Positions 2,427 to 45,154 of a stretch of DNA of 64,000 nucleotides are shown piece by piece. Each line of letters begins with the position of its first letter. Within the stretch, counting starts at the first letter, position 1. Source of the stretch: Lachnospiraceae bacterium (GTDB taxonomy: Bacteria > Bacillota > Clostridia > Lachnospirales > Lachnospiraceae). Where the stretch lies: contig JAFUPV010000012.1 of the NCBI GenBank assembly GCA_017472605.1, positions 470-64,469 of the forward strand. The letters run 5' to 3'. Both the position numbers and the translations under genes were made by a program. The notes under the pieces are model-generated. The model made no database searches, had not been told where the DNA came from, and saw only the letters and a program-made list of their open reading frames with translations.

Positions 2427-2556
2427 TGGATTTTCTTTTTTATCAGACTGCCCTGCAGTATTCGGACTGTATCACAAAAAGCCATCCGGTGAAAGGTTGA
2501 GCCCTCAAAGGACTGCTCCTCGATAGAAACTGCTCGGTTGCATGAGCTTCCCCGTG

Positions 2557-2612
2557 AAAAAAGGCTGCCGAACGGCACTGCTCATTTCTGAACTGTGCCG
2601 CCATGCAGCCTT
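2557..2612 (-). terminator. Rho-independent terminator of the GH13 gene, with a second hairpin at 2617-2656
   Basis: AAGGCTGC...GCAGCCTT stem with inner CGGCAC/GTGCCG pairing, followed by a T-run on the minus strand; GTAAGACTCTG/CAGAGTCTTAC inverted repeat next to it. Confidence 0.65.
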
Positions 2613-2691
2613 CTGTGTAAGACTCTGTATGACAAGGAGGGAGGGCAGAGTCTTACCTCATCTATAGTTATGGGATAATACGCTTCTGTGA

Positions 2692-4362: not shown

Positions 4363-4458
4363 CTATACCTCCTGTCCGGCTGCCTGCGCATTCCGGTTTC
4401 GTCACGTTTCTGATTCCTCTTGCGATTCATTTTCTGACTCGTATTCGGATTCGTCTTT

Positions 4459-5988
4459 TTATTTGTCTTCTTTTTTCACCTGTTTCTGCGCCCAGTTCAT
4501 TCTTCCGTAACGCTTTGTCACCGCCAGAATCTCCTGCTGCAATTCTTCGCCAAGCTGCTTTTCGGTCACGCGCCACTTCCAGTTCTTTCCAACGGTGGAG
4601 GGCTGATTAATCCGCGCCTCATTGCCAAGACCAAGATAGTCCTGAATCGGAATGATACACAGATTCGCTTTACTTCTCATGACAAGACTGACAAAGGACT
4701 TGTGCAGATTCTTGATTGGCGTTGTGAAATCGCAGAGATACTCTCTTGCCAGCTTCTGTTCTTCCTTCGTGATGGCCTTATACCAGCCGTTAATGGTTTC
4801 ATTGTCATGGGTTCCGGTATATACGACACAGTTTTCCGGATAGTTGTGAGGCAGGTAGTCAGACGCGCATCCGGTATCTCTGGCGTCAAAAGCGAACTCC
4901 AGCACCTTCATGCCGGGGAATCCGCTGTCCGCGACCAGCTGACGGACAGAGTCAGTCATATAGCCCAGATCCTCCGCGATGACACTGCGTTTTCCAAGTG
5001 CCCATTCCACGCTGCGGAACAGGTCGATTCCCGGACCCTTCTCCCAGTGACCGTTAACTGCTGTTTCTTCTCCATAGGGAATGGAGTAATACTCGTCAAA
5101 CCCGCGGAAATGATCCACACGAACCACATCATAGAGTCGGAAGCAATAAGCCAGACGGGAAATCCACCACTGGAAGCCGGTATTTCTGTGATAGTCCCAG
5201 CGGTACAGCGGGTTTCCCCACAGCTGACCGGTTGCGGAAAATCCATCCGGCGGGCAGCCTGCAACAGCGGTCGGCAGATTGTTCTCATCCAACTGGAACA
5301 GTTCCGGGTGAGCCCAGGTGTCTGCGCTGTCCATGGCAACATAGATCGGGATATCTCCGATGATCTGAATGCCCTGACCGTTTGCATAAGCCTTCAGGCG
5401 GTTCCACTGAGTGAAAAATTTGAACTGCATGAAATACTGAAATTCAATTTCATAGTACAGCTCCTTGTGATAATAATCGATGGCATTCTGCCAGCGGAGG
5501 CGGATATCCTCTGCCCACTGTGTCCACGGAATGCCCCCAAACCGCTCCTTCACCGCCATAAACAGACCATAGTCAGACAGCCACCAGCGGTTTTCCTCCA
5601 TGAACCGGTGGAATTCCGGATTCTCATGAATTCTGCTTCTTTCATAGGCCTTTCGCAGCAGCGGATATCTTGCTGCGTAAATTTTGCTGTAATCCACATC
5701 TGCCTCATTGGTTCCGAAATCCGCCGCATCACACTCTTCTTCTGTCAGCAGACCTTCCTCAATTAATTCTTCCAGACTGATGAAATAGGGATTTCCTGCA
5801 AAGGTTGAAAAGGACTGGTATGGAGAATCTCCATAGCTGGTCGGTCCTAAGGGCAGAATCTGCCAGTAGGACTGACCGGCTTCTTTCAGCCAGTCAACAA
5901 AATCATAGGCGCTCTTTGAGAAACAGCCGATTCCGTACTTTGACGGAAGGCTGGTGATTGACAGTAAAATACCTGCTGCTCGTTTCAT
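4459..5988 (-). CDS. malQ: 4-alpha-glucanotransferase (amylomaltase, GH77)
   Basis: Start moved to MKRAAGILL (5988, purine-rich RBS); WQILPLGPTSYGDSPY, IIGDIPIYV, WGNPLY, RVDHFRG, AEDLG, YTGTHDN, RINQPS. Confidence 0.95.
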   Translation of the reverse strand: MKRAAGILLSITSLPSKYGIGCFSKSAYDFVDWLKEAGQSYWQILPLGPTSYGDSPYQSFSTFAGNPYFISLEELIEEGLLTEEECDAADFGTNEADVDYSKIYAARYPLLRKAYERSRIHENPEFHRFMEENRWWLSDYGLFMAVKERFGGIPWTQWAEDIRLRWQNAIDYYHKELYYEIEFQYFMQFKFFTQWNRLKAYANGQGIQIIGDIPIYVAMDSADTWAHPELFQLDENNLPTAVAGCPPDGFSATGQLWGNPLYRWDYHRNTGFQWWISRLAYCFRLYDVVRVDHFRGFDEYYSIPYGEETAVNGHWEKGPGIDLFRSVEWALGKRSVIAEDLGYMTDSVRQLVADSGFPGMKVLEFAFDARDTGCASDYLPHNYPENCVVYTGTHDNETINGWYKAITKEEQKLAREYLCDFTTPIKNLHKSFVSLVMRSKANLCIIPIQDYLGLGNEARINQPSTVGKNWKWRVTEKQLGEELQQEILAVTKRYGRMNWAQKQVKKEDK

Positions 5989-6170
5989 GGTTCCCTCTCC
6001 CTCTTCTTCCATATTCTTTCTGCTTTTCCTGCTTCGATTTTTCCTGCTTCGATGCATGTCCCTGCGATCCGATGCCGCATCATGCCGCACGCAGTACCGC
6101 ATTCTTCCGTTGCATTACTTCTGCAGCTCTCATGCGATTCGCTGCAGTTCTCCTGCATCAAAGTCGCACG

Positions 6171-7562: not shown

Positions 7563-10112
7563 TCACTCCTGATTCGTCCCATTCTCCTGCAGGCGGAACA
7601 TGACAGTAAGGATTCTTCTGACACATTCCTGCAGTGTCTCTCTGTCCAGACTGCCATCCGCCATTGCCTGCTGAATGCTTTCCACATCTTTCGGGCATCC
7701 CGGCATGATCAGATCATTTCCGGCTGCGGCGCACATCCACGGAATACTCTGTCCCGGTCTGGTTGTGCTCCAGTCCGTCATAATCAGTCCCAAAAATCCC
7801 CACTCCTCTCTTGCCGCCCGGGTGCAGAGATCCCAGCTGTTTGCTGCATGCTGACCATTAATCTGATTATAAGAGGTCATTATCGCCGCAGGCTGTGCTT
7901 CTTTCACTGCAATCTCAAATCCGCGAAGATAAAGTTCACGGAGTGCCCGTTCCGAAAGAACACTGTCCGACCACCTTCTGTTATTCTCCCGATTATTACA
8001 CGCAAAATGCTTGATGGTCGTTCCTCTGCCTGGCACAGACTGCACTCCTCTGGTAATGGCAGCCGCCATTTTGCCGCTCACCAGCGGATCCTCGGAATAA
8101 TATTCAAAATTTCGTCCGCACAGCGGATTTCTGTGGATATTCATGCCCGGAGCCAGCCACAGGGAAATTCCAAACTCCTCCATTTCACGGCCAATCGCCT
8201 GACCAACCGTTTCCAGAAGCGCCTCATCCCAGGTCTGCGCCAGCAATGTACCTACCGGGATCGCTGTACAATACTGATAGTACCGCTTCCTATGTTCCGA
8301 TTCTTCATGGGAAAGGAAGAATCCGCCTTCCAGTGCGCCAAGAATTCCCGGGTTTTTGATTGTTCCGTCTCTGCAGTCCACCTCATAGCTTTTTGCCAGC
8401 CGAAGTCCGGCAGGCCCGTCTGCCATGATCATTCCGTCAATGCCATAGTCCGCTTCCAGAACACTGCTTGTTTCTCCGGCCGAACCCGGCACACGGATTC
8501 CTGCTGCTCCAATGGTCTGGTCATATTCTGCGCTCAACTCACCAACTACCATGGAAATCAACTGGCTGTCACTTAATTTCCGCACCAGTTCTTCTGTTTT
8601 CTTTTCTATCACTTCGATCCGGCTCCCTGCCGTCATTCCGGATCCGCTTTCCCCTTTTTCCTTCCCCGGCACAAAGAAAACCACAGGAAGCTTCTTTTCT
8701 TCTGCCAGCGCATTCCACGTTTGTTCCTGCCTAAGACGTGCCTCCCGATCACAAACAAGTTCCTCCAGCGGCTCTTGGACCGGACATATGTGCCGTACCG
8801 GTTCCAGCAGGGTCTCCCGCTCCACCAAAACCACGCCGGACAGCTCCAGATTTCTGGAAGAATTGCCGACCCAGATTCCATATCTTCCTTTTTCAATCAC
8901 CCAGCCGGACTGTACTTCATCAAACGATGCGATTGCCTTCCCATCAAAAGTGATTGTAAGGTTCTGACTCTCCCCCGGTGCAAGCAGTTTCGTCTTGGCA
9001 AATCCTGCCAGTCTCCGGAATTCTTTCGGCAGCCCGGTCTGAGGACAGGACACATAGACCTGCACCACTTCCCTTCCGCAAAACTGCTCGCCCTTATTTG
9101 TTACCAATACCGTTACTTCCACCCGGTTTTCCCCAGCCATTCCCGCTGTGATTTTTTCCGTTTTTATCGAAAATTCCGTATAGGAAAGGCCGAATCCGAA
9201 GGGATACACAACTTCTTTTTCAAAGCTGTCAAAATACCGGTATCCCACATAAATTCCTTCCTCATAACGTTCTTTCAACGCATCCGGACCGGGTCGGCTG
9301 AAGGTTTCTGCACTGGGATAATCGGCATATTCCCATGCCCAGGTATCCGTCAGCTTCCCGCCTGGTGTTGCCTTTCCCATCACCAGATCCGCCAGCGCAT
9401 GTCCGCCTTCCATCCCTGGCTGCGAAACATAAATCAGAACCTTCAGATTGGGAATCGCCAGAATATCCTTCAGATCAATTGGACCTCCCGTATTCAGAAT
9501 GACCGCTGTGTTCCTGCAATGCTCCGACAGCCGGACCAGCTGTTCTTTCTCTTCCCGGGTCAGATAGTAGTCTCCCTCCTGCGTGAACCGATCCGCACTT
9601 TCCCCAGCTGTTCTGCTGATCACATAGAATCCGGTGTCTGCTCCTTCAAAATCACTGTCTTTCATGGAATCTCCCGGCGGCATGTGAAAACGGTGTCTGT
9701 TGTAAGAATCAAGCAGCCGTTTGCTTTCGCTCCGCTCTGTTTCTTCCATAATAATACTTCGCCAGTCTTCCCGCGCCTTCTGATAGACTGCGGCAAACCG
9801 ATCCAGCCATTCCTGATTGCTCAGTTCCAGACCAGCCTCTGCAAACCCCTGATAAATGCTTACCGATTCCCGCTCGTTCACATCACCGGAACCGCTTCCA
9901 CCCTTAACTGTTTTTACTGCTCCGCCTCCAAAAAGCGCAACACGCGCTCCTTTTTTCAAAGGCAGTACCCCTTCGTTTTTCAGCAGTACAATCCCCTCCG
10001 CTGCCGCTTTCCTTGCCACCTCCCGGTTTTCTATCTCTCTTCTGGATACCGCATTGTCCGGGGTTCCGCTGTATCTTCTCTTTCCCCTGTCTGTTTTCAC
10101 CATTCCGCCCAT
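7563..10112 (-). CDS. GH3 beta-glycosidase with inverted domain order
   Basis: AAAEGIVLLKN and YEEGIYVGYRYF in the N-terminal half; DGPAGLR, PGMNIHRNPLCGRNFEYYSEDP, KHFACNN and IMTDW in the C-terminal half. Confidence 0.92.
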   Translation of the reverse strand: MGGMVKTDRGKRRYSGTPDNAVSRREIENREVARKAAAEGIVLLKNEGVLPLKKGARVALFGGGAVKTVKGGSGSGDVNERESVSIYQGFAEAGLELSNQEWLDRFAAVYQKAREDWRSIIMEETERSESKRLLDSYNRHRFHMPPGDSMKDSDFEGADTGFYVISRTAGESADRFTQEGDYYLTREEKEQLVRLSEHCRNTAVILNTGGPIDLKDILAIPNLKVLIYVSQPGMEGGHALADLVMGKATPGGKLTDTWAWEYADYPSAETFSRPGPDALKERYEEGIYVGYRYFDSFEKEVVYPFGFGLSYTEFSIKTEKITAGMAGENRVEVTVLVTNKGEQFCGREVVQVYVSCPQTGLPKEFRRLAGFAKTKLLAPGESQNLTITFDGKAIASFDEVQSGWVIEKGRYGIWVGNSSRNLELSGVVLVERETLLEPVRHICPVQEPLEELVCDREARLRQEQTWNALAEEKKLPVVFFVPGKEKGESGSGMTAGSRIEVIEKKTEELVRKLSDSQLISMVVGELSAEYDQTIGAAGIRVPGSAGETSSVLEADYGIDGMIMADGPAGLRLAKSYEVDCRDGTIKNPGILGALEGGFFLSHEESEHRKRYYQYCTAIPVGTLLAQTWDEALLETVGQAIGREMEEFGISLWLAPGMNIHRNPLCGRNFEYYSEDPLVSGKMAAAITRGVQSVPGRGTTIKHFACNNRENNRRWSDSVLSERALRELYLRGFEIAVKEAQPAAIMTSYNQINGQHAANSWDLCTRAAREEWGFLGLIMTDWSTTRPGQSIPWMCAAAGNDLIMPGCPKDVESIQQAMADGSLDRETLQECVRRILTVMFRLQENGTNQE

Positions 10113-11842: not shown

Positions 11843-12544
11843 TTATAATTCTTCCACATACCGCACGCCGTCAATTTCCCGCAGCACATCCATCACCACG
11901 GCTCGCCTGCTCTTATCCTTCACTTCAATCGTTGCGATTGCAGTGGGCCCCTCACCCTTAATCCGGCTTTTTGATACCTCAAACATCACCAGCTTCAGTT
12001 CTTCACTGCGCAGCGCATCCCGGAATCCCCGAATGCTCTGGTTTCGCTCAAATTCCAGATACAGGTCATATACCTTTGCATACCTTGGCAGCAAATGATC
12101 CACATAGTTCAGGATTTTAAAGGTAAACAGCGCAAATGCGGTACCTAAAACAACGCCTTCCATGTAGCCGATTCCGGCTGCAAGCCCGAGACAGGCACAG
12201 GTCCACAGACCGGCCGCCGTTGTCAGACCTCTGATCTGATTTTTTCCGGTTACAATGATTGTACCGACTCCAAGAAAGCCCACACCGCTGATCACCTGCG
12301 CACCAAGACGGCCCAGATCCGATTCCGAAGGAAAATGCACGCTCATGTACTGTCCTGTCATCATGACCACCGCGGCGCCCAGGCAAACCAGCACATGCGT
12401 TTTAATGCCGGCTCCTCTTCGTTTGAGTCCTCTGTCAATCCCGACAGCCAGCCCGACAATCATCGCGGCAGACATGCGCAAAACCATTGACAGCAGGCTC
12501 CATTCCCTCGCTGTAACAACCAGCCATTTCCACATCTCATTCAC
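11843..12544 (-). CDS. MgtC/SapB family membrane protein
   Basis: GIDRGLKRRGAGIKTHVLVCLGA, RLGAQVISGVGFLGVGTI, GLTTAAGLW. Confidence 0.92.
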   Translation of the reverse strand: MNEMWKWLVVTAREWSLLSMVLRMSAAMIVGLAVGIDRGLKRRGAGIKTHVLVCLGAAVVMMTGQYMSVHFPSESDLGRLGAQVISGVGFLGVGTIIVTGKNQIRGLTTAAGLWTCACLGLAAGIGYMEGVVLGTAFALFTFKILNYVDHLLPRYAKVYDLYLEFERNQSIRGFRDALRSEELKLVMFEVSKSRIKGEGPTAIATIEVKDKSRRAVVMDVLREIDGVRYVEEL

Positions 12545-14216
12545 TCCATTCTGCTTCTTTTTTTCGGATTACACGTCCCCATCCGTCAAAATCCAGAATC
12601 ACCTCCGCAGTCTCGATGACGCCGCTGCCCCATCTGGAGAAAACGCAGGGGCTATCATATGTCTCATATGGAAATCGAACCGTTTCGCCATTAACCCGCC
12701 GTTCCTTCCGGTTCATCATCAGATTGGAGTAAGTCAGCGTCATGGTATCCGGATCCAGCCGCGGATGGCCGGCTCTTACCATCTCCTGAAACGCCGAAAA
12801 GCTTCCGCTCTCCTCCCGGGTCGAAACAACGCAGACCACCCCATGCTTTCTGCCGCAGCTGCGCACTTCTTTCTCCCGCAGATCCTCGCGTCCATCGCTG
12901 ATTCCCTGGGAAAACCACAGCGCTGCATATACCCTTTTATGGGCTTTCATCCACAGATAGTTTTCTTCCCGTACCACTTCCAGACGGGAAAACGGCACAC
13001 TTGCATGAATGAATCCTTCTTCCGACTCCGGTATGTCATAAGTCGCCATGGCCACATTCCCTTCACTGAAAAACTGTCCACAGCAGCAGAACAGATCTCC
13101 GGTCCAGTATCCATGCTCCTTTCCCTCCGGTCCACAGCTGCCCGGATGGTGGGTGAAGATGCGGATATCCTCCGTCGGCAGAATCGTCAGCTCCCATTCA
13201 TGCTGCTGATGATGGGCATACCAGGCAGCTTCGCTCCCTGCCGGATAGTCATCCTGCCAGGTCACACCGCCGATCATGTAATCCGGCGTGATGTAAGTCC
13301 GTTTGCTGATGCTTCCCGGAACCTGAGGAACCTGTCTGTGAGGGGTCTGGTATGTAATGCTGTGCAGATGCTTGCACTCTCTGTTTTCCCAACGTTCGGG
13401 ACGCGCCCGAAGAACGGCATATACATAGTCAGCCGGTCGGAATGTACTTGCTGCCGGCTCCAGGCAGGCACCACACGTCTCGTCCTCCCCAAAATAGAGC
13501 TGATACAGCAGATACATTCCCTTCAGCCGGAAGGAAAACGCATAGCGTTCATAAATTCTGCCATGAGCGCCGCCGTAAAATCCCTGTCCGGAACAGTCCA
13601 TGATCATATCCAGAAGCATCACATTGGCCGACATTTCCGCATACCGGCTCATTGGTTCATCCGCAAAATCATATAGATTCAGCAGAGCGGCAAACACCTC
13701 CAGTCCATAACCGGTCGAGTCAAACTCCGCCCATCCTCTCTGTGCCCGAAAGCGGATAAATTCCTGCAGAAAATCCCGATCCACAGCCGCCATCTCCGCT
13801 CCCTTCATCTGATATGGTTCAAAAAGCGCATCCGGATATCTGAGCGCATATAAATATCTGGCTTCATGGAACAGAAGCATGTGATTCTCTGATTTATACA
13901 CGCTCTCAAAGTCCCATTTGGTAAAGAATTCGTGGATCAGCTCCATGGTTTGCTTCGGGAGCCTGTCCTCCAGACTGTAGCATGCCCGGATCAGCTTGTG
14001 AGCCACAAAATCCGGTTCCCCCTGTAAAAAACGCCCCTGCCCTTTTGGATGAGGCAGTTCGAACCACTTTGCCGCCCGGTTCAGTCCGGCAATCGCTTCC
14101 TCATCCGTCTGCTCCTTCCACAAAAGCCTGGCAATCGCCTTCTCTCCGTAAGGATCATATCCAATCTCCCCTTCCAGAAGTTCCTTTTTTATCCTCTCAT
14201 ACAGTACCTGATTCAT
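12537..14216 (-). CDS. Uncharacterised 559-aa cytoplasmic protein, possibly lyase-like (helical toroid plus beta-sandwich)
   Basis: Long ORF overlapping both neighbours; helical N-terminal half with SENH, EFDSTGY and GGAHGRIY; beta-rich C-terminal half. Confidence 0.6.
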   Translation of the reverse strand: MNQVLYERIKKELLEGEIGYDPYGEKAIARLLWKEQTDEEAIAGLNRAAKWFELPHPKGQGRFLQGEPDFVAHKLIRACYSLEDRLPKQTMELIHEFFTKWDFESVYKSENHMLLFHEARYLYALRYPDALFEPYQMKGAEMAAVDRDFLQEFIRFRAQRGWAEFDSTGYGLEVFAALLNLYDFADEPMSRYAEMSANVMLLDMIMDCSGQGFYGGAHGRIYERYAFSFRLKGMYLLYQLYFGEDETCGACLEPAASTFRPADYVYAVLRARPERWENRECKHLHSITYQTPHRQVPQVPGSISKRTYITPDYMIGGVTWQDDYPAGSEAAWYAHHQQHEWELTILPTEDIRIFTHHPGSCGPEGKEHGYWTGDLFCCCGQFFSEGNVAMATYDIPESEEGFIHASVPFSRLEVVREENYLWMKAHKRVYAALWFSQGISDGREDLREKEVRSCGRKHGVVCVVSTREESGSFSAFQEMVRAGHPRLDPDTMTLTYSNLMMNRKERRVNGETVRFPYETYDSPCVFSRWGSGVIETAEVILDFDGWGRVIRKKEAEWSE

Positions 14217-16408
14217 TCCGGTTCTCCTTCCAGTTCCTTCCGTAATTCCCAGTACTCCGATCCCGCCGCCAGAATCACTCCAGTTCCATGATCATCATTG
14301 CAGATCGTAGGAATCGAAAAGTAGTACTCCGCTTCCATCGCGCAGCCGGATCCCATGCACACACCATATACATTTCCCCGTTTGTCAATGCTGTGCGTTA
14401 AAAGCCCTTTCCATGCCCTCTCCATCGTGTCAAGAAAATCCCTCTCCAGCCATCCATACCGGACACCTCTTGCAAACGCCAGCAAAAACATGCCTGTACA
14501 GGACGTTTCCAGATAGGAACCTTCCTCTGTCCGGTTCAGTACCTGATGCCACAGCCCGCTCTCATCCTGCAGTTCCCGGATTCTGTGGGCCATCTCATAA
14601 AACAGCTGTTTCTCCTTTGACACATCCACATGACCTTCCCCATACATCAGAAATTCAGACAGGGTCCACATGACCCAGCCGTTTCCCCTTCCCCACGGAA
14701 CCCGATTTGCCCGTTCCTCATGAGAAAAATAGATATGAGAAAACAAATGCTCGTCTTCCATGTACAGACGTTTCCGAAATCCGCAAATCTGCTGTGCCGC
14801 TTTTTGAAACCACGTGCTGTCCTTCGTCAGTCTGCCCATGCGGACAAGAAATGGACAGCTCATGTACAGGTCATCTGCCCACATGGTATCCACACGGTAA
14901 TAGGTTCCGTCCGCAAGCCGGGGAATGGTTTCCTCCGCCTGATACCGGATCCGATCGATCAGGGGAAGCAGATTTCTGTCATTGGAATCCAGATAGGCAT
15001 CGATCAGATTCATTCCCATGGTTCCGATGTTGTCCAGAACATTCATCTGCGCAGTCCTTGGCATAAAGGCGGGCATTACATGGGTTCTGATGTCGTATTG
15101 GATATAGTCAAACCAGGCGGCAAGCATGCTCATGTTTTCGCAGAACAGGCGCTGCCTTTCCCTGTCCCCGAAGCAGGCTGCCGCGTCCCGGATTCCATAG
15201 AAACCGACCATCAGCGCATAAAACCACTGGCCGAAAAATACGCTGTCCAGATAAGCGCGAAGCTCACTGCCGTCGCAGAAGCGCCAGTACACCGGCTCTC
15301 CCTTTGCATTGACAAACACCTTCGAGAAATCCCATTCATATTCCGGGCCATGACACTGGGTTCCGCAGAAGGGGCCGGCAAAGATGGCTTTATCGCCTGT
15401 TTTCCGGCCGGACTGCAGGAACGGAAGAACCAGGTTGGCCGTATCAAGGGACAGATACCAGTCATCGCCCCTTCGCCTGCACCGAATCAGCACCCGGTCC
15501 CCTTTTTCCAGATACGGCTCCGAATCTTTCTGCACCATCCCGTTCACCCAGATCTCCTCTGCCGTGCCGCAAAAAGAAAGACGATGCGCCCTGGCTGCCT
15601 CCGAGTAGACGTAGCACACATCTCCCTCCTGACACAAGTTCCGGAAATCAAAGGTCTCTCCCCGAGGAAACGTTTCTCCCTGAGGAAGCGTCTCTCCCGG
15701 AGGAAATGTCTCTCCCGAAAGAAGCAACGGCGGCCATGCGTAGGAAATGGCAGCCCATCCGTCATCGGTCCCCTTCCATTCATCCGCATGAAACAGCTGA
15801 CTCAGCGCAATTCCTTCTTCCCCTGCTCTCTCCTCCATCGGGAGAACCGCTCTTGCCCAAAACAGATAATCATTGGCCCACATGCCCGGATATCGCTTTA
15901 CCGACAGAAGCACTTCAAACGCAAATGGCTCCTCTGCTCTCTTCTCGCACAGGATCCGCACCGGATTCTCCTTCTCCGTTTTTACCCGGATCGGCAGATG
16001 AACCGGCTCCTCCAGGCGTTGATCCCATTCGTTCCCGCCGTTTTTCTCCCCCTGCCTTTCCTCCATTTTCTCATGGCTTCTTCCATCATAAATCAGCTGT
16101 TTTTCATACCAGACACAGACATTTCCCGATACATTCAGATAGATTTCTTCCTCCTGCAGACAGCGGATGCAAAAATCCGCAATCACAGAATCTCCCTCCT
16201 TCGCTTCCGGATACATCGCATCCAGATCCACCCGAAGACTCCCCAGCGCGCGCACATACCGGACAAAGGGGCATGGCTGAAACGGCCGGTAATGTACATC
16301 GGTTTTCGGTCTTGTCTGCAATGCGCGATCCATGATGGTGCGGATCACCTGCGCGGTTCCCTGGTCCTGTAAAATCATTTCCTGTCCATGGATTATTGTT
16401 TCATTCAT
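14213..16408 (-). CDS. GH105/GH88-type unsaturated glycuronyl hydrolase with an N-terminal extension of about 385 aa
   Basis: C-terminal MWADDLYM, HLFSH, WGRGNGW, GLWHQVL, YLETSCTGMF and DDHGTG motifs. Confidence 0.85.
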   Translation of the reverse strand: MNETIIHGQEMILQDQGTAQVIRTIMDRALQTRPKTDVHYRPFQPCPFVRYVRALGSLRVDLDAMYPEAKEGDSVIADFCIRCLQEEEIYLNVSGNVCVWYEKQLIYDGRSHEKMEERQGEKNGGNEWDQRLEEPVHLPIRVKTEKENPVRILCEKRAEEPFAFEVLLSVKRYPGMWANDYLFWARAVLPMEERAGEEGIALSQLFHADEWKGTDDGWAAISYAWPPLLLSGETFPPGETLPQGETFPRGETFDFRNLCQEGDVCYVYSEAARAHRLSFCGTAEEIWVNGMVQKDSEPYLEKGDRVLIRCRRRGDDWYLSLDTANLVLPFLQSGRKTGDKAIFAGPFCGTQCHGPEYEWDFSKVFVNAKGEPVYWRFCDGSELRAYLDSVFFGQWFYALMVGFYGIRDAAACFGDRERQRLFCENMSMLAAWFDYIQYDIRTHVMPAFMPRTAQMNVLDNIGTMGMNLIDAYLDSNDRNLLPLIDRIRYQAEETIPRLADGTYYRVDTMWADDLYMSCPFLVRMGRLTKDSTWFQKAAQQICGFRKRLYMEDEHLFSHIYFSHEERANRVPWGRGNGWVMWTLSEFLMYGEGHVDVSKEKQLFYEMAHRIRELQDESGLWHQVLNRTEEGSYLETSCTGMFLLAFARGVRYGWLERDFLDTMERAWKGLLTHSIDKRGNVYGVCMGSGCAMEAEYYFSIPTICNDDHGTGVILAAGSEYWELRKELEGEPE
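15654..15725. repeat. 4 x 18-bp in-frame tandem repeat (GETxPx) inside the GH105 gene
   Basis: gtctctccccgaggaaac / gtttctccctgaggaagc / gtctctcccggaggaaat / gtctctcccgaaagaagc. Confidence 0.9.
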
Positions 16409-16595: not shown

Positions 16596-18179
16596 TTATC
16601 GATTTTCAGCGATCCACTCGTCGATCTGCTTCTGATAGTCATCAATGACATCCTGCACACCTGCGTCTTCCAGCTTCTTCATGAACTCCTCATAGCAGGC
16701 TTCCCAGCCGTCAACGCCCATAACGCCGGTTGTCAGCGTGTTCTTATACTCGTCCGCAACTGCCGCCACCTGACTGATCTGGGTCGCAATGTTTGCGGTG
16801 GAAGGCGCAAAGCCGATGAGAGAAGAGGAAACCGTATCCGGTGATTCGTTCAGTTCCTTCGCAAGCTCATACTGTCCGTCCAGAACCGCCTGATTCTTAT
16901 ACGCATAGAAGCTGTTTCCGATGATCCACTTCATTGCCGCATAGGAAGTGTCCTCACCGCCCTGGCTTCCCGCATACTCAAGCGTCTCGATTCGATCCGG
17001 ATCCTCCGCATCCTTGACATAATGCTCGCCTTCCAGACCAAACACAACGGTGTTGTAAATTTCTTTTCCAATCTCCGTACCCGTTGTCAGCAGCTCGATA
17101 AACTTCGCCGCTTCCTCCGGATGCTCACAGGTGGAGGAAATGCCGTTTCCGCCTGCCGCCCACTTGTACTGAATGTAATCGTACTGCTGTACAGGAATCG
17201 CAACCACGTCAAAGCCGTAGGATTCACTGTAAATCTCAGAAACATGCTCCGGCGTACCGATCTGCTCCTTCACGCAGAATACGGTAGAAATCTCGTCCAT
17301 CATGTGGCCATATGCGTAGTTCTGAAGATCTGTGCTGACGCCGTCCGGTGAGAAAATGCCCTTGTCATACCAGTCCGCATAAATTGCCCATTTCTCTTTG
17401 AACTCGTCATTCATGTACAGGTAGGAAACCTCATCGGTGCCGTCCTTTACCATAAATCCCTTGCCAAGCGCGTCATATGGCGTTTCAAAAGCATAGCCAA
17501 GCGTGCCGCCGACCTCACTGATGCTCAGGGTACTTGCATATTTCGTGTCACCCTCGCCGGCGCGGACAGCCATTACATATTCCTCCAGGCAGGCAGCCTT
17601 CTCGGTAATCGTCAGATCCCAGTTTGTCAGCGTCTCATACATCTCATCATAGTTTCCATACTTGTCCATATATTCCTTCGGGAACAGAATGTATGCACTG
17701 TTGAATGCATTCTGATAGTTGGGAACCATGTAGGTCTCTCCGTCAACCATACCCATCTTCCACAGCCACTCCGGCAATTCTGCCCTCAACTCATCGGAAA
17801 TATACGCATCCATCGGCATGAAGCTTCCATCCTCCACATGCTCCGCAAAGGAAGACAGGTTCACGCTGTTTAAGATGTCGATCTGCGCCTTGCTCGCCTG
17901 TGCCAGCAGCACCTGCTGATTATATTCCGATGAAACAAAGCAGTTAAAGTTTACCGATACATGTTCCATGCCGGGAACGGTTTTCAGCAGCTCATTGACC
18001 TTTGCTTCCACCGCGTCCGTATCCTCCTGCTGTCCGCAGCCTCTGTAATACCATTCCAGCAGAACCGGCTCCTTCTCCTCTCCGTCCTCTGCCGCAGCAG
18101 CCGGGCCTGCTCCCGCTCCAATCATCAGACCCATTGACAGCAGCACTGCCATTGATAATGCTCTTCTTACCTTTCTCAT
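16596..18179 (-). CDS. Carbohydrate ABC transporter solute-binding protein
   Basis: Start MRKVRR with RBS GGAGG; signal peptide; acidic SBP body with FGLEGEHY and KLEDAGVQDVIDDYQKQ C-terminus; follows two permease genes. Confidence 0.88.
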   Translation of the reverse strand: MRKVRRALSMAVLLSMGLMIGAGAGPAAAAEDGEEKEPVLLEWYYRGCGQQEDTDAVEAKVNELLKTVPGMEHVSVNFNCFVSSEYNQQVLLAQASKAQIDILNSVNLSSFAEHVEDGSFMPMDAYISDELRAELPEWLWKMGMVDGETYMVPNYQNAFNSAYILFPKEYMDKYGNYDEMYETLTNWDLTITEKAACLEEYVMAVRAGEGDTKYASTLSISEVGGTLGYAFETPYDALGKGFMVKDGTDEVSYLYMNDEFKEKWAIYADWYDKGIFSPDGVSTDLQNYAYGHMMDEISTVFCVKEQIGTPEHVSEIYSESYGFDVVAIPVQQYDYIQYKWAAGGNGISSTCEHPEEAAKFIELLTTGTEIGKEIYNTVVFGLEGEHYVKDAEDPDRIETLEYAGSQGGEDTSYAAMKWIIGNSFYAYKNQAVLDGQYELAKELNESPDTVSSSLIGFAPSTANIATQISQVAAVADEYKNTLTTGVMGVDGWEACYEEFMKKLEDAGVQDVIDDYQKQIDEWIAENR

Positions 18180-18208
18180 CTGAAAACCTCCATGATTTTT
18201 ATTTATTG

Positions 18209-19087
18209 TCATCCCTTCACGCCTCCCAGTGTCATACCTTTGGTAAAATACTTCTGGAAGAAGGGAAATGCAACCAGTACCGGTCCGGCTGCGATGATAG
18301 CCATCGCAAAGCGCAGCGTTTCCGTCGGAACCACCGCGTCGCCAACATAGGAACCCATTTCCGTTGCCTGTTTCAGGTATTCCACTTCCCGGATCAGCCG
18401 CTGCAGCAGATACTGCAGGGAGTACAGATCCGGATCGCGGATATACAGCATCGATGTCATCCAGTCATTCCACTTTGTCACCAGAAACAGGAATGCAACG
18501 GATGCAATTCCTGGCTTTGCCAGCGGAACGACTATTTTAAAGCAGATATACAGTTCCTTTGCGCCGTCGATTTTTGCCGCCTCGATCAGCTCATCCGGAA
18601 TGCTCTGATAATTGGTCCGGATGATCATGACGTTGTACGCAGATACCAGTCCGGGAAGAATATACACCAGAATCTTGTCATCCAGATGAAGAACACTGGT
18701 CAGCAGGATGTAGGTTGGCACCATTCCGCCGGAAAACAGCATGGTAAAATAGACAAAAAAGTTCAGCTGCTTCTTCCAGATGAAATTCGGCCTGGACATG
18801 GGATAGGCCAGCATTGCCATGACAACGGTTGAAAGCAGCGTAGCCGCCAGTGTAAAGAAAATGGTGACTCCATAGGCACGGATAATCTTCATCGGATTGC
18901 GCAGCGCCAGTTCATATGCCGCCGTGCTGAACACCTTCGGTATCAGACGGTAGCCGCTCTGGATCAGTGTCGTTTCATCGGTGAAGGAAACGGAAATGAC
19001 CATCAGCAGCGGAAGGACATACATGACTGTTATCAGGATAAAAACAATGTGCAGACAGATCTGCCCCAGATTTTTTTTCTTCTTCAT
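18209..19087 (-). CDS. Carbohydrate ABC transporter permease
   Basis: EAA motif ELIEAAKIDGA, FSGGMVPTY, WNDW. Confidence 0.93.
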   Translation of the reverse strand: MKKKKNLGQICLHIVFILITVMYVLPLLMVISVSFTDETTLIQSGYRLIPKVFSTAAYELALRNPMKIIRAYGVTIFFTLAATLLSTVVMAMLAYPMSRPNFIWKKQLNFFVYFTMLFSGGMVPTYILLTSVLHLDDKILVYILPGLVSAYNVMIIRTNYQSIPDELIEAAKIDGAKELYICFKIVVPLAKPGIASVAFLFLVTKWNDWMTSMLYIRDPDLYSLQYLLQRLIREVEYLKQATEMGSYVGDAVVPTETLRFAMAIIAAGPVLVAFPFFQKYFTKGMTLGGVKG

Positions 19088-19098
19088 AGCCACTCCTC

Positions 19099-20031
19099 TT
19101 AAAACAGACAATTTTCCGGACTGATCTTTTTCACAACTGCATTGGCCAGCACAACGGTCAGAAATCCGGCTGCTGACTGGAACAGTCCGATGGCTGCGCC
19201 TCTTGCCAGATCTCCTGCCTGGAGCGCGCGATAGGTATAGGTATTAATGATATCCGTTACCGGATACAGGACTCCGGTGTTCTTCGGAACCTGGTAAAAC
19301 AGACCGAAATCTCCGGTAAACAGCTTGCCGATGGACAGGATGTTCTGAATGATTATAATGGGGAGCAGATGGGGAAGCATGACATGCCAGATCTGTTTGA
19401 TCTTATTTGCTCCATCCAGTCTGGCTGCCTCCAGCAGCCCCTCGTCCAGACTCATCAGGGAGGAATAGTAGATGACGCTGGTCACTCCCACATGGCCCCA
19501 TATGTATACAATCGTCAGGATCAGCGGCCATACACCAATCTGTGTATACCAGTCTGTCCTGCCTTTCCCAAGCGCCTCCAGCATCTGGTTCAGCAGGCCA
19601 TATCTGGAATGCAGGAAAACTTCTGCCAGAAATGCGACAACGACTGCCGAAAGAAAACGCGGAAACAGAATCACCGTGTTATACAGTTTCAGTGCTTTTG
19701 CATTTTTCAGGCTGTAAAACATCAGTGCCAGCGTTACCGCCGTTATGGTTCCCAGAATCATCCAGCTGAAATTATACAGGATTGTGTTCCGGATTGTCCG
19801 AACCGCATCTGCGGATGAGAAGAAGAACTTAAAATTGTCCAGACCGTTCCACGCGCTTCCCCAGATTCCCTTCAGCGGTTTATAGTTTTTAAATGCAATG
19901 ACAATGCCAAACATTGGTGCATAGTTGAAAATAAGGAGCAGCACAATTCCCGGAACTGCCAGCATTCCCATGCTGATGCTTTCGCGAACTGCTTTTTTCG
20001 ATGACTTTCCTCTCCTTCGTATCCCTTTCAC
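19099..20031 (-). CDS. Carbohydrate ABC transporter permease
   Basis: GTG start with RBS AAGGAGG; WNGLDNF, LLEAARLDGA. Confidence 0.93.
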   Translation of the reverse strand: MKGIRRRGKSSKKAVRESISMGMLAVPGIVLLLIFNYAPMFGIVIAFKNYKPLKGIWGSAWNGLDNFKFFFSSADAVRTIRNTILYNFSWMILGTITAVTLALMFYSLKNAKALKLYNTVILFPRFLSAVVVAFLAEVFLHSRYGLLNQMLEALGKGRTDWYTQIGVWPLILTIVYIWGHVGVTSVIYYSSLMSLDEGLLEAARLDGANKIKQIWHVMLPHLLPIIIIQNILSIGKLFTGDFGLFYQVPKNTGVLYPVTDIINTYTYRALQAGDLARGAAIGLFQSAAGFLTVVLANAVVKKISPENCLF

Positions 20032-20095: not shown

Positions 20096-20257
20096 TCCTC
20101 GTTTCATGCTTTTCTCCTCGTTTCGTACCAACCTCCGGAAATTGGTCTCCGGCGATTGAATTTTCGCTGATTTTCCGCTATGATTTACTTACCTTAACAG
20201 ACAAAGTGCGTTCCTCTTTGTCCTGTGCAAATATGTACTGTTTACCGGAGGTTTCTC

Positions 20258-21511
20258 ATGTATCAGCTCATGATCGTGGATGATGAGATCATGTCTCAGG
20301 AAATCATCTCAAACTATATCAAAAGCAATCTTCCCGCCTATCAGATCACCCATGTCTGCAGCAACGGCGCGGATGCACTTGCCTGCTTTCGCCAGAAACC
20401 GGTTGATCTCGTGCTGGTTGATATCCGCATGCCCGTCATGGATGGAATCGCTTTCATTGAAGAACTGAACCGGCTGACTTCCGACTGCATTCCCATAATC
20501 ATCAGCGGCTACGCGGAATTTGAATATGCCCAGTCGGCAATGAAGCTTGGCGTGAATCACTATCTGCTGAAGCCCCTTGATTTTCTCGAACTGGAGCGCA
20601 GTCTTTCGGCCGCCGCCCATTCCCTGAATTCCAGGAGGCAGCTTCTTGCCTCGCTAAACGTTGCCGAAGACAATCAGGAGATTTTTTTCACGCAGCTCCT
20701 TTTGGGCTCGTATCAGACAAAGGACCAGGCCCTCATCCAGTTTTCCTCTCTGCGTTTCCCCTTTTCCTATGACGCCTGCAGCGGAATCTGTCTGCAGATC
20801 CGGTTTCATTCGCTGGAGCCGGAACGTCTGGAACTGGATCCGCTCTATATGGGAATTAAAAATCTGCTTCATCTGCTCTTTTCCGCCCGATATCTGGTGC
20901 TCCTTTCTGCCAGAAACAGCACCTGCAGATACCTTCTCATCACCGATCATCTTGCGGACAGCCGGTTTGAGGAACTGCGCCTTCAGGCGCTCCAGCTGTT
21001 GGGTATTGAGATCACAGTAGAGCCTCTTCTCTCGTTTTCTTCGCTGGAGGAGCTGCGTACGAAAAAACCGGATTTTCTTCTTTTGGATTCCCGGCCGGCG
21101 AATCCTCCCTTCTCATTGCCCGGGGAACCGGTTCCATTTCTTTCCGTTCTGGACGAACCGGGACAAAAAAGCACAGCAGAAGCCATTCAGTCAAGCATTG
21201 AACAGGCGATTGTCTATATGAAGGAACACTTTGCGGAGGATTTAACGCGGGAAGCGGTGGCGGAAAAGGTGTACATGTCAGGTGCGCACTTCAGCCGGTG
21301 CTTTAAGCTTGTCATGCGGACTTCCTACAAAGATTATCTGACAGAAATCCGCATGCAGAAGGCCATCGAGCTGCTGAAAACCAATTGCCGGATCCAGGAC
21401 ATTGCCAGACAGGTGGGCTATCCGAACCCCAACCGTTTTAACATCAACTTCCGGCAATACACATCCTATACACCATCGGAATACCGCAGGCAGGTTCTGA
21501 AGCTGATCTGA
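20258..21511 (+). CDS. Response regulator with C-terminal AraC domain (YesN-like)
   Basis: MIVDDE, VDIRMPVMDG, YLLKP; AraC HTH SGAHFSRCFK...VGYPNPNRF; start moved to MYQL (RBS GGAGG). Confidence 0.93.
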   Translation: MYQLMIVDDEIMSQEIISNYIKSNLPAYQITHVCSNGADALACFRQKPVDLVLVDIRMPVMDGIAFIEELNRLTSDCIPIIISGYAEFEYAQSAMKLGVNHYLLKPLDFLELERSLSAAAHSLNSRRQLLASLNVAEDNQEIFFTQLLLGSYQTKDQALIQFSSLRFPFSYDACSGICLQIRFHSLEPERLELDPLYMGIKNLLHLLFSARYLVLLSARNSTCRYLLITDHLADSRFEELRLQALQLLGIEITVEPLLSFSSLEELRTKKPDFLLLDSRPANPPFSLPGEPVPFLSVLDEPGQKSTAEAIQSSIEQAIVYMKEHFAEDLTREAVAEKVYMSGAHFSRCFKLVMRTSYKDYLTEIRMQKAIELLKTNCRIQDIARQVGYPNPNRFNINFRQYTSYTPSEYRRQVLKLI

Positions 21512-21623
21512 AACGTTCTGCCCCTTTCCGGCCGGTCCCGCCTGAAGTCTGTACCGCCGAACGTCTTTCCCACCGGATTTTCTGCTTTCTCTCCCGTTCC
21601 GATTTCAATCAGGAGGTATCTGT

Positions 21624-23357
21624 ATGAACCAGATCAAAAAACTGGTATCGAATTCGTTTGTAAAAAAGTGGTTTTTTACCCTTCTGCTTTTCGTAACCAT
21701 TCTGTTTATCTGCTTCATGGTATACACAAGAATTCATTCCGTGCGTCAGCTGCAGGTGGAATTTACTTCCTACAGCGAACTGCAGACAGAACGGATTTCC
21801 GAGCATCTGGATGACAGCATCCAAAGCTGCAGGAGGGTGGGCGCACTGCTGTCACTGGACGAGATGATCAACATCTATCTGTTTCGGGAGAACGCGGTCT
21901 CCGTCTTTCCGGATCTCTACACACAGATCCGCTCCCAGCTGACCGCCTATACGCAGGGGCTTCCCGTGATCGACTCCATCTATCTGTACCCTGCTTCCCA
22001 AAAAGAAATCTTCCTGTCCGATTATTCCGTTCCGGTTCCGTCCGGCAGCTTTTCCGATACCAACTGGATTTCCGCGCTGGATGGGCTGGACGATATGACT
22101 TACATATACCGGAAGAAAAACAACCGGTATCCCTACCTTGCCACCCTGCTCATACCGATTCAGCAGTCCGGCCAGAAGGCTCACATTGTCCTGAACATGA
22201 ACCTGTACCAGCTTTCCATTCTGGAAGACAAGAACGACAACTCGTTCCAGAATATCTATATTGTGTCGGAGGAAGGCGATATTCTTTACCGCACCTTCCA
22301 GCAGAATATGCCGGAAGACAGAAGCGCTGTCCCGAACCTGCACCATTTCGATGGAACTGCCGACTATCTGAGCTATTACGCCGATACCGACTCGCCTTAC
22401 ATTTACGTCCAGCAGCATTCATCCAAATTTCCATGGTACTACATCACCATCACGACTCCTCAGAGCTTCCGGGTTCCGTCCTATGACTTCTTTGGTGAGC
22501 TGCTGTCGTTTCTCCCGTGGCTTCTGGTTCTGGCAATCATTCTTATCATCTGTCTGGTGCTGATGTTCACCCATCCGCTGCGCACCATCTCCACGTTTCT
22601 GGATGCGCCCATCAAGCAAATGCCGGACAATATTTCCGAACCTGAGGTGCAGAAAATCATCCGGCAGTTTATTAATTATGTTCATACCAACCAGTCCCTT
22701 TCCGATGAACTGAACCATCAGATGGAGCTGCAGAACAATGCGACCTACTGTGCGCTGCAGGCGCAGATCAATCCACATTTTCTGTTTAATACACTGAATA
22801 TGATTCGCAACATGGAAATCGAAAGCCTTGGCTATCACCATGAAGTGCCAAACACAACTCTGACGCTGTCCCGACTGCTTCAGTACGCCATCAGTTCCAC
22901 CGAACTGGTTCCCCTGAAGACGGAATTCTATTACATGGATCTTTACCTGACCATCCTGAATCAGCGTTACCGGCAGGCTCTGCAGTTTGAGATTCAGACG
23001 GACTCCCATTCCGATGACCTGCTGATGCCGAAAATGATCCTGCAGCCGCTGGTGGAAAACGCAGTCTTCCATGGCTGCGCGCCGGCGCTGGATACCTGCA
23101 ACCGGATTATGATCACTGCCCGGAACGCGGACAGCACCTGCACCATAACGATCCGTGACAACGGAATCGGCATTGCGCCGGACGCACTGAACGAGCTTCG
23201 TCAGTCACTGACAAACATGAATGAAATCCCCAGCAATTCCATTGGCCTGCAGAACGTAGCGTTCCGCATGTATCTGACCTATGGAAAGGAGTTTCATCTC
23301 ACCATCGACAGCACAGTTGGAGAAGGAACCTGCATCACACTTTCCTTCCCGGCCTGA
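21624..23357 (+). CDS. Sensor histidine kinase (YesM/LytS-like)
   Basis: Two transmembrane segments; LQAQINPHFLFNTL, LQPLVENAVFHG, DNGIG, IGLQNV. Confidence 0.93.
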   Translation: MNQIKKLVSNSFVKKWFFTLLLFVTILFICFMVYTRIHSVRQLQVEFTSYSELQTERISEHLDDSIQSCRRVGALLSLDEMINIYLFRENAVSVFPDLYTQIRSQLTAYTQGLPVIDSIYLYPASQKEIFLSDYSVPVPSGSFSDTNWISALDGLDDMTYIYRKKNNRYPYLATLLIPIQQSGQKAHIVLNMNLYQLSILEDKNDNSFQNIYIVSEEGDILYRTFQQNMPEDRSAVPNLHHFDGTADYLSYYADTDSPYIYVQQHSSKFPWYYITITTPQSFRVPSYDFFGELLSFLPWLLVLAIILIICLVLMFTHPLRTISTFLDAPIKQMPDNISEPEVQKIIRQFINYVHTNQSLSDELNHQMELQNNATYCALQAQINPHFLFNTLNMIRNMEIESLGYHHEVPNTTLTLSRLLQYAISSTELVPLKTEFYYMDLYLTILNQRYRQALQFEIQTDSHSDDLLMPKMILQPLVENAVFHGCAPALDTCNRIMITARNADSTCTITIRDNGIGIAPDALNELRQSLTNMNEIPSNSIGLQNVAFRMYLTYGKEFHLTIDSTVGEGTCITLSFPA

Positions 23358-25230: not shown

Positions 25231-25275
25231 CACCGATTCAGGCATTACCAACTCTGGCATTACCGATTCCGGCAT
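25231..25275. repeat. 3 x 15-bp tandem repeat at the permease stop codon
   Basis: caccgattcaggcat / taccaactctggcat / taccgattccggcat. Confidence 0.85.
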
Positions 25276-27086: not shown

Positions 27087-27146
27087 CGTCCCATCCTCCT
27101 GTTACTTATACAGTTCCATGTACCGCAGATCCATGGATCAGTCCAG

Positions 27147-28385: not shown

Positions 28386-28430
28386 AGATATCACCCTCTT
28401 TTCCCTGATCTGTGAATCCCGGCAACAAAA

Positions 28431-28456
28431 CGGCTGCGGAATCATTTCCGCAGCCG
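28431..28456 (-). terminator. Hairpin terminator
   Basis: CGGCTGCGGAA/TTCCGCAGCCG stem flanked by AACAAAA and TTTTGTT. Confidence 0.7.
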
Positions 28457-45114: not shown

Positions 45115-45154
45115 AAAAATCTCCTGCTGTGTATTCTTATCGTTTTTCACTGCC

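Follow-up and report, generated by a model that had tools for sequence, protein, structure and literature searches.

Enzymes of glycoside hydrolase (GH) families GH88 and GH105 are common in gut and soil bacteria, and many loci that encode them hold no recognisable enzyme making their unsaturated substrates. GH105 acts only on 4,5-unsaturated uronates, and the locus described here raises the question of which enzyme supplies them. It lies in a 64,000-nucleotide stretch of a Lachnospiraceae genome (GenBank assembly GCA_017472605.1, contig JAFUPV010000012.1, positions 470 to 64,469; hereafter the window), in which the stop codon of a GH105 gene overlaps the start of gene X, an open reading frame (ORF) of 559 amino acids (aa). 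A beta-eliminase that supplies the GH105 enzyme is the best reading of X, and the data do not separate a lyase from a dehydratase.

X is a real gene, and its coupling to GH105 is real. Its ATG occupies positions 14216-14214 and the TGA of the upstream 731-aa ORF positions 14215-14213, so that the two genes share two bases within an ATGA; this overlap, which the first-pass annotation had reported, was read directly on the DNA. The N-terminus of X (MNQVLYERIKKELLEGEIGYDPYG) has no hydrophobic signal segment, in agreement with the same annotation, and 49 of 50 aligned homologues are likewise without one, as is the 731-aa partner. The partner matches the Pfam model Glyco_hydro_88 (PF07470) over residues 394-720 (E 1.4e-57), a model that covers both GH88 and GH105, and its best solved relatives are all GH105 enzymes, namely 3k11 (9e-30), YteR 1nc5 (8e-22), 4ce7, and 5noa; YteR is a rhamnogalacturonan enzyme, 4ce7 an ulvan enzyme, and 5noa an arabinogalactan-locus enzyme. 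By these sequence matches the partner is a GH105. Its 390-aa N-terminal extension (window 15239-16408, minus strand) matches nothing in Pfam, NCBIfam, or the PDB at the sequence level and contains a short peptide repeat, GETFP/GETLP, four times at about residues 228-250. Long-form GH105 genes with a homologous extension occur in 11 loci, adjoining X in 10 of them and lying about 6 kb away in the remaining one (L015), as well as inside a fusion protein (P0137; L086, positions 1851-6008). This fusion is a single 1,385-aa ORF, encoded downstream of a DUF3502 binding protein, in which an X homologue (56% identity) is joined seamlessly to a long-form GH105 (39% identity over the catalytic part and 25% over the extension).

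Comparison of 76 neighbourhoods of the X family, with 69 immediate neighbours on each side, placed GH105 as the most frequent immediate neighbour (9 upstream and 12 downstream), with solute-binding proteins, sulfatases, GH78, and WbsX-domain proteins next in order. At the second position transporter components predominate, permeases and binding proteins being the commonest, and no canonical lyase family is among the neighbour families listed. GH105 adjoins X in 20 of 81 full-length members, which collapse to 5 of 40 lineages at 60% identity clustering. The adjacency occurs in five separate gene arrangements. The clade of the window gene has GH105 in 9 of its 14 members, always in the long form and upstream of X, while all eight Paenibacillus loci carry a short GH105 downstream of X (confirmed as GH105 by 3qwt, 9e-72); the other arrangements are the singletons L027, L036, and L063, the last with an X only 34% identical that again stands beside a long GH105. 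Genomes of the window clade carry up to three X paralogues, one of them beside GH105, and tandem arrays occur elsewhere. The link thus exceeds the single overlap, since it is seen in the top-ranked neighbour, in several independent gene orders, and in one fusion. The transporter type found in the window adjoins GH105 and X in two further loci (L084 and L086), and in L084 the operon is minimal, comprising importer, long GH105, and X only, and is followed by unrelated arginine genes.

Searches of Pfam, NCBIfam, and the PDB (phmmer) with the sequence of X returned no match; a Pfam 'Mating_N' match on X (E 0.0019, under the cut-off) was discarded as noise. A first, word-indexed search found 235 homologues at E ≤ 1e-3, the closest at 73% identity, and all are unnamed or 'hypothetical' except one with the UniRef label 'Heparin-sulfate lyase N-terminal domain-containing', the sole trace of the heparinase-type lyase clan at this level. 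An exhaustive profile search across 1.84 billion representatives (50% identity clusters) extended the superfamily to 3,138 proteins at E ≤ 1e-3, among which multidomain proteins are numerous; 1,768 pass a threshold of 1e-10 and 470 one of 1e-30. Their loci come from Lachnospiraceae, Faecousia, Acetatifactor, other Clostridia metagenome-assembled genomes, and Paenibacillus, and additional hosts include Planctomycetota, Verrucomicrobiota, Latescibacterota, and Victivallales, among others. Superfamily members are also found fused to BNR/sialidase-like propellers, CBM96, and a 3-keto-disaccharide-hydrolase-like domain (P0077, P0192, P0178, P0193; L073 8879-14634; L065, L079, L051), in forms of about 930 aa, and in tandem arrays of two or three paralogues.

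Three alignments were used as profiles, comprising 50 close members (A1), 56 divergent members (A4), and a mixed set of 80 (A7). In member-wise Pfam scans, none of the 50 close and none of the 56 divergent members matched a relevant family, and the models PF07940 (Hepar_II_III_C), PF16889 (Hepar_II_III_N), and PF16332 (DSE-like_N) matched neither X nor any of these members. Searches of the three profiles against PDB chains at E ≤ 10 found no lyase, no GH154, and no credible match. Comparison of A1 with a small alignment of polysaccharide lyase (PL) family PL35 using hhalign gave no significant alignment, whether run globally or locally (probability 0.24%, E 0.26), although the best local path, itself not significant, sets the S-E-N-H of X on S-N191-N192-W of GAGase II. 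For this comparison HMMER alignments served to reconstruct the PL35 chains 8khv, 8khw, and 9o3q, with a frameshifted PL35 gene in locus L083 as the query; that gene was located using a peptide decoded from published mutagenesis primers, a search which by itself gave only fragments. The gene (L083 2896-4844) encodes a PL35-type lyase beside GH88 in a SusD locus and is split into three ORFs by frameshifts that are probably long-read assembly errors. The only remote relative that a relaxed hmmsearch detected inside the fetched loci has 1,221 aa and is encoded in L037 (E 0.004); it too has no Pfam or PDB match. A literature search for a characterisation of the X family (new PL family with GH105; PL43-46; glucuronate lyase with GH105) returned nothing relevant. 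Judged by these searches, the X family is large and uncharacterised in every library searched. The first-pass annotation had recognised no lyase in the window, and indeed none of the approximately 30 large ORFs scanned matches a Pfam lyase family; five ORFs match no family at all, so the claim is valid for recognisable lyases only.

The AlphaFold2 model of X, built from the 50-sequence alignment, has a mean predicted local distance difference test score (pLDDT) of 93.1 and a predicted TM-score of 0.93. It shows about a dozen helices over residues 1-271 and beta strands over residues 276-551, as expected from the helical N-terminal and beta-rich C-terminal halves described in the first-pass annotation. 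Foldseek comparison of the full-length model with the PDB gave 12 matches at E ≤ 1e-3, and the top 15 all have the toroid-plus-sandwich architecture. The best is the PL35 enzyme GAGase VII (8khw; E 2e-6, query TM-score [TMq] 0.42), and the others include PL35 GAGase II, PL12 HepC (4mmh), PL8 enzymes (2x03, 2wda, 8fyg, and 1f1s; chondroitin AC, hyaluronate, and xanthan lyases), human dermatan-sulfate epimerase 1 (6hzn; E 2.2e-4), and PL15 Atu3025 (3afl; E 3.9e-4). The PL35 and PL12 matches range from E 2e-6 to 5e-5. At the level of overall architecture, the model supports placing X with the lyase clan.

The four motifs noted at first pass (SENH, EFDSTGY, GGAHGRIY, and HHQQHEW) are all found in X, at residues 109-112, 164-170, 215-222, and 335-341, and each contains invariant or at least 90% conserved positions in the 50-sequence alignment. 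Within the close branch the invariant polar residues of the toroid are R62, E67, E110, N111, H112, R157, E164, S167, Y170, H218, and R220, and those of the sandwich are E280, K305, H336, Q338, H357, W371, D374, C377, and C379. Across A7, with a mean identity of about 21%, the polar positions conserved at 90% or more (E110, N111, H112, E164, S167, Y170, and R220) all lie in the toroid, E164 being the only strictly invariant residue of the superfamily; the pair C377/C379 is confined to the close branch and lost in the divergent one. N111 and H112 fall in the first turn of helix 110-126, and Y170 sits at, or one residue ahead of, the next inner helix (170/171-184). The distance from N111 to Y170 is +59, and the published Asn-to-Tyr spacing of the clan (PL12/15/17/21/35/39/40) is +52 to +60. 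The carboxylate neutraliser and the Tyr are N192 and Y246 in PL35, N240 and Y294 in PL12, N336-H337 and Y390 in PL15, N201 and Y258 in PL17, and N186-H187 and Y239 in PL39 (PMC12088678 Table 4), with N192/Y246, N187/Y241, and N240/Y294 given as the pairs of PL35 and PL12 (PMC12088678), and N245-W246 (W sometimes H) and Y305 in PL40 (PMC12915356). The Asn-His...Tyr set of X resembles these in order and spacing, a likeness read from the sequence and not an alignment. In its position and its Asn-[His/Trp] pattern, the candidate neutraliser pair agrees with PL35, PL15, PL39, and PL40. The loop 356-379, past the fifth beta strand, has a lower pLDDT (70-76). In PL35 a metal-binding loop lies past the first five sandwich strands (PMC12088678), and by analogy the X loop is a possible metal site.

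The same scaffold could carry another carbohydrate reaction, and X might be a glycoside hydrolase (e.g., a rhamnosidase-like enzyme acting on GH105 leftovers) or a uronate C5-epimerase like the dermatan-sulfate epimerase. That epimerase is both a significant full-length match and joint-best by toroid-only TM-score (0.43); GH92, GH127, GH146, and GH9 are among the weak structural matches; many invariant carboxylates (E67, D69, E110, E164, D166, D203, D207, and E280) are available; the neighbours of X include GH116, GH127, GH5, and GH94; and most lineages do not place X beside GH105. No glycoside hydrolase of this domain order outranks the lyases in Foldseek, however, and conservation across the superfamily falls on the Asn-His/Tyr/Arg set, not on a carboxylate pair at fixed spacing. 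A hydrolase would also leave unexplained the fusion to an enzyme that accepts only lyase- or dehydratase-made ends, and it is not obvious what an epimerase would do in a catabolic operon of two enzymes. We consider this family of explanations unlikely.

Co-translation and fusion with GH105, together with a lyase scaffold carrying the Asn-His/Tyr/Arg set, suggest that X most simply makes unsaturated ends by beta-elimination. We tentatively favor, at rather less than even confidence, a cytoplasmic exo-acting oligosaccharide lyase that supplies GH105, probably on pectin-type oligosaccharides. Our account of the chemistry, of the substrate and exo mode, and of the part played by each residue is inferred. 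The adjacent ABC transporter would import small oligosaccharides containing uronic acids, and, in a uronate that occupies the non-reducing end or adjoins it, X would carry out a beta-elimination across C4-C5. The bond cleaved would join a neutral sugar at the non-reducing end to O4 of the uronate that follows; the most plausible candidates are L-rhamnose for the sugar and the galacturonate of rhamnogalacturonan-I-type fragments for the uronate. The resulting 4,5-unsaturated uronate would then be hydrolysed off by the co-translated GH105, and by alternating, the two enzymes could dismantle a chain of alternating sugar and uronate without other enzymes. In the putative active site, N111 and H112 would neutralise the carboxylate and Y170 would act as the proton shuttle, assisted by R220 and E164, while a sandwich-domain His (H339 or H357) and the candidate metal loop 356-379 would complete the site at the domain interface. 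Such a cycle would account for the importer, GH105, and X being able to stand alone. A lyase acting on uronate-uronate bonds would release monomers, which would explain why most lineages need no adjacent GH105.

The coupling to GH105 is also compatible with X being an oligosaccharide uronate dehydratase, which would remove water (the 4-OH) at a saturated non-reducing-end uronate without a glycosidic cut and leave the product to GH105, the two together replacing a glucuronidase or galacturonidase. We hold this to be possible but doubtful and rate it slightly below the lyase. Two unrelated families perform this reaction and were both found through co-localisation with GH88/GH105, namely GH154 (BcGDH and BT3677; PMC12269599) and P29_PDnc (PMC8511951). 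P29_PDnc of Formosa agariphila acts with a GH105 and a GH3 (PMC8511951), the window operon likewise contains a GH3, and P29_PDnc (622 aa, modelled as an incomplete toroid plus beta-sandwich) is similar to X in size and layout. GH154 is among the nearest weak neighbours of the X toroid (8oi4, probability 0.90-0.95, TMq 0.41-0.43) and appears with the full-length model (9o4u and 9nwf), and the active-site residues of BcGDH, N176-N177-W178, Y229 (+52), and R285 (+56) (PMC12269599), are ordered like N111-H112, Y170 (+59), and R220 (+50) of X. GH154 primes the non-reducing-end uronate for the hydrolase, and the dehydration reaches an equilibrium from which the hydrolase draws it forward (PMC12269599; PMC8511951 Fig. 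S28 legend); this would explain translational coupling and fusion. Against this, none of the X profiles matches a GH154 chain in the PDB even at E ≤ 10, with 9o4u, 9nwf, and 8oi4 in the set searched. A dehydratase paired with GH105 would stall on alternating chains in the absence of a rhamnosidase, and the minimal operons have none. The catalytic residues proposed for P29_PDnc are Asp, Arg, and Lys, with a Tyr that tested dispensable (PMC8511951), whereas X keeps the Asn-His/Tyr set. A dehydratase is moreover useless without GH88/GH105, yet 35 of the 40 lineages have no GH105 beside X (a partner could lie elsewhere in the genome), and this distribution fits a lyase better than an enzyme that always needs such a partner.

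Several observations weigh against the exo-lyase. The lack of GH105 beside X in those 35 lineages is itself one of them, and a reversible dehydratase would be served even better by such close coupling and by the fusion. The fusion is known from one 8.3-kb contig in one sample and may be an assembly error. The Pfam, NCBIfam, and PDB profile searches and the PL35 comparison were empty, so at the sequence level there is no link from X to any lyase. The full-length TM-scores are only 0.33-0.44, and the toroid modelled alone (residues 1-272, pLDDT 92.5) has no Foldseek match at E ≤ 1e-3; its best weak neighbours are transcobalamin and GH154 (E 0.05-0.09, TMq up to 0.43), the first lyase being PL17 4nei at rank 23 (TMq 0.38), with dermatan-sulfate epimerase 1 at rank 42 and PL27 at TMq 0.34. 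Since the toroid alone goes unmatched, the likeness of X to lyases resides in the sandwich domain and the domain order. The heparinase II/III-type interpretation proposed at first pass is partly supported: it is borne out by the full-length model, whose matches are led by PL35, PL12, PL8, the epimerase, and PL15, and is not established by the toroid or by the PL35 profile comparison; as modelled, the toroid has diverged from every solved structure and is too divergent to assign. The roles of the residues come from spacing and helix position, not superposition, the sandwich His is ambiguous between H339 and H357, and the substrate is drawn from gene neighbours alone.

A separate question is whether the family is new. 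The first-pass annotation had proposed a candidate new polysaccharide lyase, and the part of that claim that stands is that no characterised family matches by sequence. The family is at most a candidate new one, PL37 having been set beside X by size, layout, and residue spacing only. The founding PL37 protein is P29_PDnc (CDF79930), which has 622 aa, was modelled as an incomplete toroid plus a beta-sandwich, and has homologues in gut Firmicutes (PMC6168547). X could belong to PL37, or to another family that lacks both a Pfam model and a solved structure, under either the lyase or the dehydratase reading, a possibility to which we give a low probability. In its favor, the founder is similar in size and predicted layout, and its PSI-BLAST relatives are 'all hypothetical', spread over several phyla, and in gut Firmicutes located beside uronate-catabolic genes. 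Its conserved or mutated residues D248, E254, E255, D269, D290, R300, K303, and Y306 (PMC8511951) are spaced 0, +6, +7, +21, +42, +52, +55, and +58, close to E164, Y170, G171, D183/D186, D207, H218, R220, and Y222 of X at 0, +6, +7, +19/22, +43, +54, +56, and +58; this is no more than a lead, and the identities differ (Asp for Glu, Glu for Tyr, Lys for Arg). The founder was also modelled with Phyre2 on PL12 heparinase III at >90% confidence and linked by PSI-BLAST to heparin-locus proteins (PMC6168547), whereas the X profiles match no PL12 chain at E ≤ 10.

Alternatively, X may be the first recognisable member of a new and very large carbohydrate-active family, with about 3,100 clusters at 50% identity, no Pfam model, no solved structure, and a toroid diverged beyond recognition from solved lyases. 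With its dedicated long-form GH105 it would then form a self-sufficient two-enzyme cytoplasmic cycle, elimination followed by hydration-hydrolysis, for alternating oligosaccharides such as the rhamnogalacturonan-I backbone, with no need of GH28 or rhamnosidases. We advance this combined proposal as a speculative one that may well fail. If the X family is the missing partner, as lyase or as dehydratase, a function could be given to about three thousand clusters of 'hypothetical protein', and a cytoplasmic step would be defined in the use of pectin and arabinogalactan by gut Clostridia. CAZy would then receive either an additional family or a greatly enlarged PL37, and a compact enzyme pair for the complete saccharification of uronate-containing oligosaccharides would become available. 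Should X prove an ordinary PL37 enzyme, the value would drop to annotation transfer.

Features of gene X and its surroundings (window coordinates)
Feature	Position	Strand	Basis or remark
Gene X, 559 aa, cytoplasmic by prediction, superfamily without a name	12537..14216	minus	ORF; 235 homologues; 3,138 representatives at E ≤ 1e-3
Predicted N-terminal alpha/alpha toroid domain, residues 1-272	13401..14216	minus	AlphaFold2 secondary structure, conservation
Predicted C-terminal beta-sandwich domain, residues 273-559 plus stop codon	12537..13400	minus	AlphaFold2 strands 276-551, full-length Foldseek
S109-E110-N111-H112, start of helix 110-126, candidate carboxylate neutraliser (Asn/His pair)	13881..13892	minus	Invariant in A1, at least 90% in A7
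E164-F-D-S167-T-G-Y170, Y170 candidate Brønsted acid/base	13707..13727	minus	Conservation; clan spacing
G215-G-A-H218-G-R220-I-Y222 loop, R220 at least 90% across the superfamily	13551..13574	minus	Conservation
H335-H-Q-Q-H339-E-W341 (verified on DNA), QQHxW core in both superfamily branches	13194..13214	minus	Conservation
H356-H357-P-G...H368...W371-T-G-D374...C377-x-C379, loop past fifth beta strand	13080..13151	minus	Conservation, AlphaFold2
GH105 partner, 731 aa, 390-aa N-terminal extension plus catalytic domain 394-720, stop overlapping X start	14213..16408	minus	PF07470
Solute-binding protein with DUF3502 (ABC sugar importer)	16596-18212	minus	Upstream of GH105, same direction
ABC permease 1	18209-19111	minus	Same direction, upstream
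ABC permease 2	19099-20031	minus	Same direction, upstream
AraC-type response regulator (divergent two-component system)	20225-21511	plus	Library scan
Cache/His_kinase sensor (divergent two-component system, 20225..23357)	21624-23357	plus	Library scan
MgtC-like membrane protein, abutting X stop	11843-12544	minus	Downstream, same direction
Metallophosphoesterase plus TIM-like protein, 533 aa	10215-11816	minus	Downstream, same direction
GH3	7563-10112	minus	Downstream, same direction

The minus-strand gene run extends from the two permeases and the DUF3502 binding protein through the long GH105 and X to the MgtC-like, phosphoesterase plus TIM-like, and GH3 genes, and the last three are also present in the closest locus, L003. 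The MgtC-family gene starts a few bases from the X stop, and the same family adjoins X in L003 and L059. In the 533-aa protein, which is kept in the syntenic L003, an N-terminal calcineurin-like phosphoesterase domain is joined to a C-terminal part with a faint likeness to CbiR, a TIM-barrel phosphodiesterase. The domain order of the GH3 is permuted, with the C-terminal domain at residues 41-311, an Fn3-like domain at 348-419, and the N-terminal domain at 610-837. A scan for promoters and terminators over window positions 7-21 kb gave counts no better than shuffled sequence, and when RNA evidence was sought, the window stretch was found only in gut metagenome DNA runs. Elsewhere in the window, adjacent 603-aa and 432-aa ORFs with no Pfam or NCBIfam match (25275-28445, minus strand) lie just downstream of a co-directional gene for a DUF3502 solute-binding protein (28510-30150); they could represent a further pair of uncharacterised enzymes in a locus for sugar uptake. 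A second glycan cluster (39607-53012 and 61704-63095) comprises genes for two GH78 rhamnosidases, a GH106-like protein, and two GH42 beta-galactosidases spanning 39.6-53 kb, with a SASA-type acetylesterase nearby, and is consistent with use of rhamnose- and galactose-rich pectin or arabinogalactan.

Other X loci carry pectin-like genes, including GH28, a Hepar_II_III_C protein, GH78, a GH140 apiosidase, GH127, and a rhamnose mutarotase. Two environmental contigs (L085 7453-9711 and the P0102 locus) share a gene set that looks conserved. In both, a Hepar_II_III_C protein of 750-810 aa is encoded one or two genes away from an X homologue, accompanied by GH28 enzymes, a protein with a beta-lactamase fold, and a protein resembling inosine-uridine nucleoside hydrolases; one of the contigs also has a GH140-type apiosidase. 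A 785-aa homologue (P0012; L084 7477-9834) was considered as an X-MgtC fusion and rejected, as the 232 additional residues lie at its N-terminus and are related to no protein of the window. This region has an SGNH-esterase-like 'LGNSIT' block and no Pfam match, and by analogy with rhamnogalacturonan acetylesterases it may be a deacetylase domain. In two loci, X has GDSL-type lipases as neighbours.

Among known systems, PL35 (GAGase VII 8khw and GAGase II 8khv) and PL12 (HepC 4mmh) are the best full-length structural matches of X. They have the order predicted for X, an alpha/alpha toroid followed by a two-layer beta-sandwich, and, as proposed for X, their Asn opens an inner helix and their Tyr comes one hairpin further on; a PL35 lyase also adjoins GH88 in L083. 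The two families differ from X in that identity is only about 10% (TM-score 0.33-0.42) with no profile-level similarity, X has 559 aa where they have roughly 640 and is predicted to be cytoplasmic, its toroid alone is not recognisably theirs, and the HxHxD motif of their sandwich is not evident in it. PL15 (Atu3025 3afl and exoHep 6lja) and PL17 (Alg17c 4nei) belong to the same clan, act exolytically on imported oligosaccharides, and have Asn-His followed by Tyr at about +54 to +57. Unlike the role proposed for X, they release unsaturated monomers and need no GH88/GH105, and they have no sequence similarity to X. PL15 and PL17 enzymes carry an extra N-terminal beta domain.

The PL37 founder P29_PDnc resembles X in making, as proposed for X, an unsaturated end for GH105, in standing beside a GH3, and in the similar spacing of charged residues, a comparison made by description only. 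It differs in being periplasmic with a signal peptide and in being detectably related to PL12. Its first description was as an ulvan lyase, and a dehydratase activity was reported later (PMC8511951). GH154 (BcGDH 9o4u/9nwf, BT3677, and 8oi4) has an alpha/alpha toroid, as predicted for X, and active-site residues N-N-W...Y...R ordered like the conserved set of X, and is often co-localised with GH88/GH105. BcGDH is, in contrast, a single-domain protein of about 390 aa with no sequence similarity to X, the toroid of X matching at a TM-score of about 0.43 (E 0.07).

The terminal-sugar lyases of PL27, PL42, and PL8 follow the same logic as the mechanism proposed for X. These are unlike X in that there is no sequence relation, PL42 is a beta-propeller, and the enzymes are secreted or periplasmic. 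Munoz-Munoz et al. 2017 are said to have described PL27 and PL42 L-rhamnose-alpha-1,4-glucuronate lyases that leave an unsaturated uronate for GH105/GH88. PL8 xanthan lyase (2e22) eliminates a neutral terminal sugar and likewise leaves an unsaturated uronate for GH105/GH88. Both 2e22 and the PL27 enzyme 5no8 are among the weaker structural matches of X, and 5noa, the GH105 of the PL27/PL42 system, matches the partner of X.

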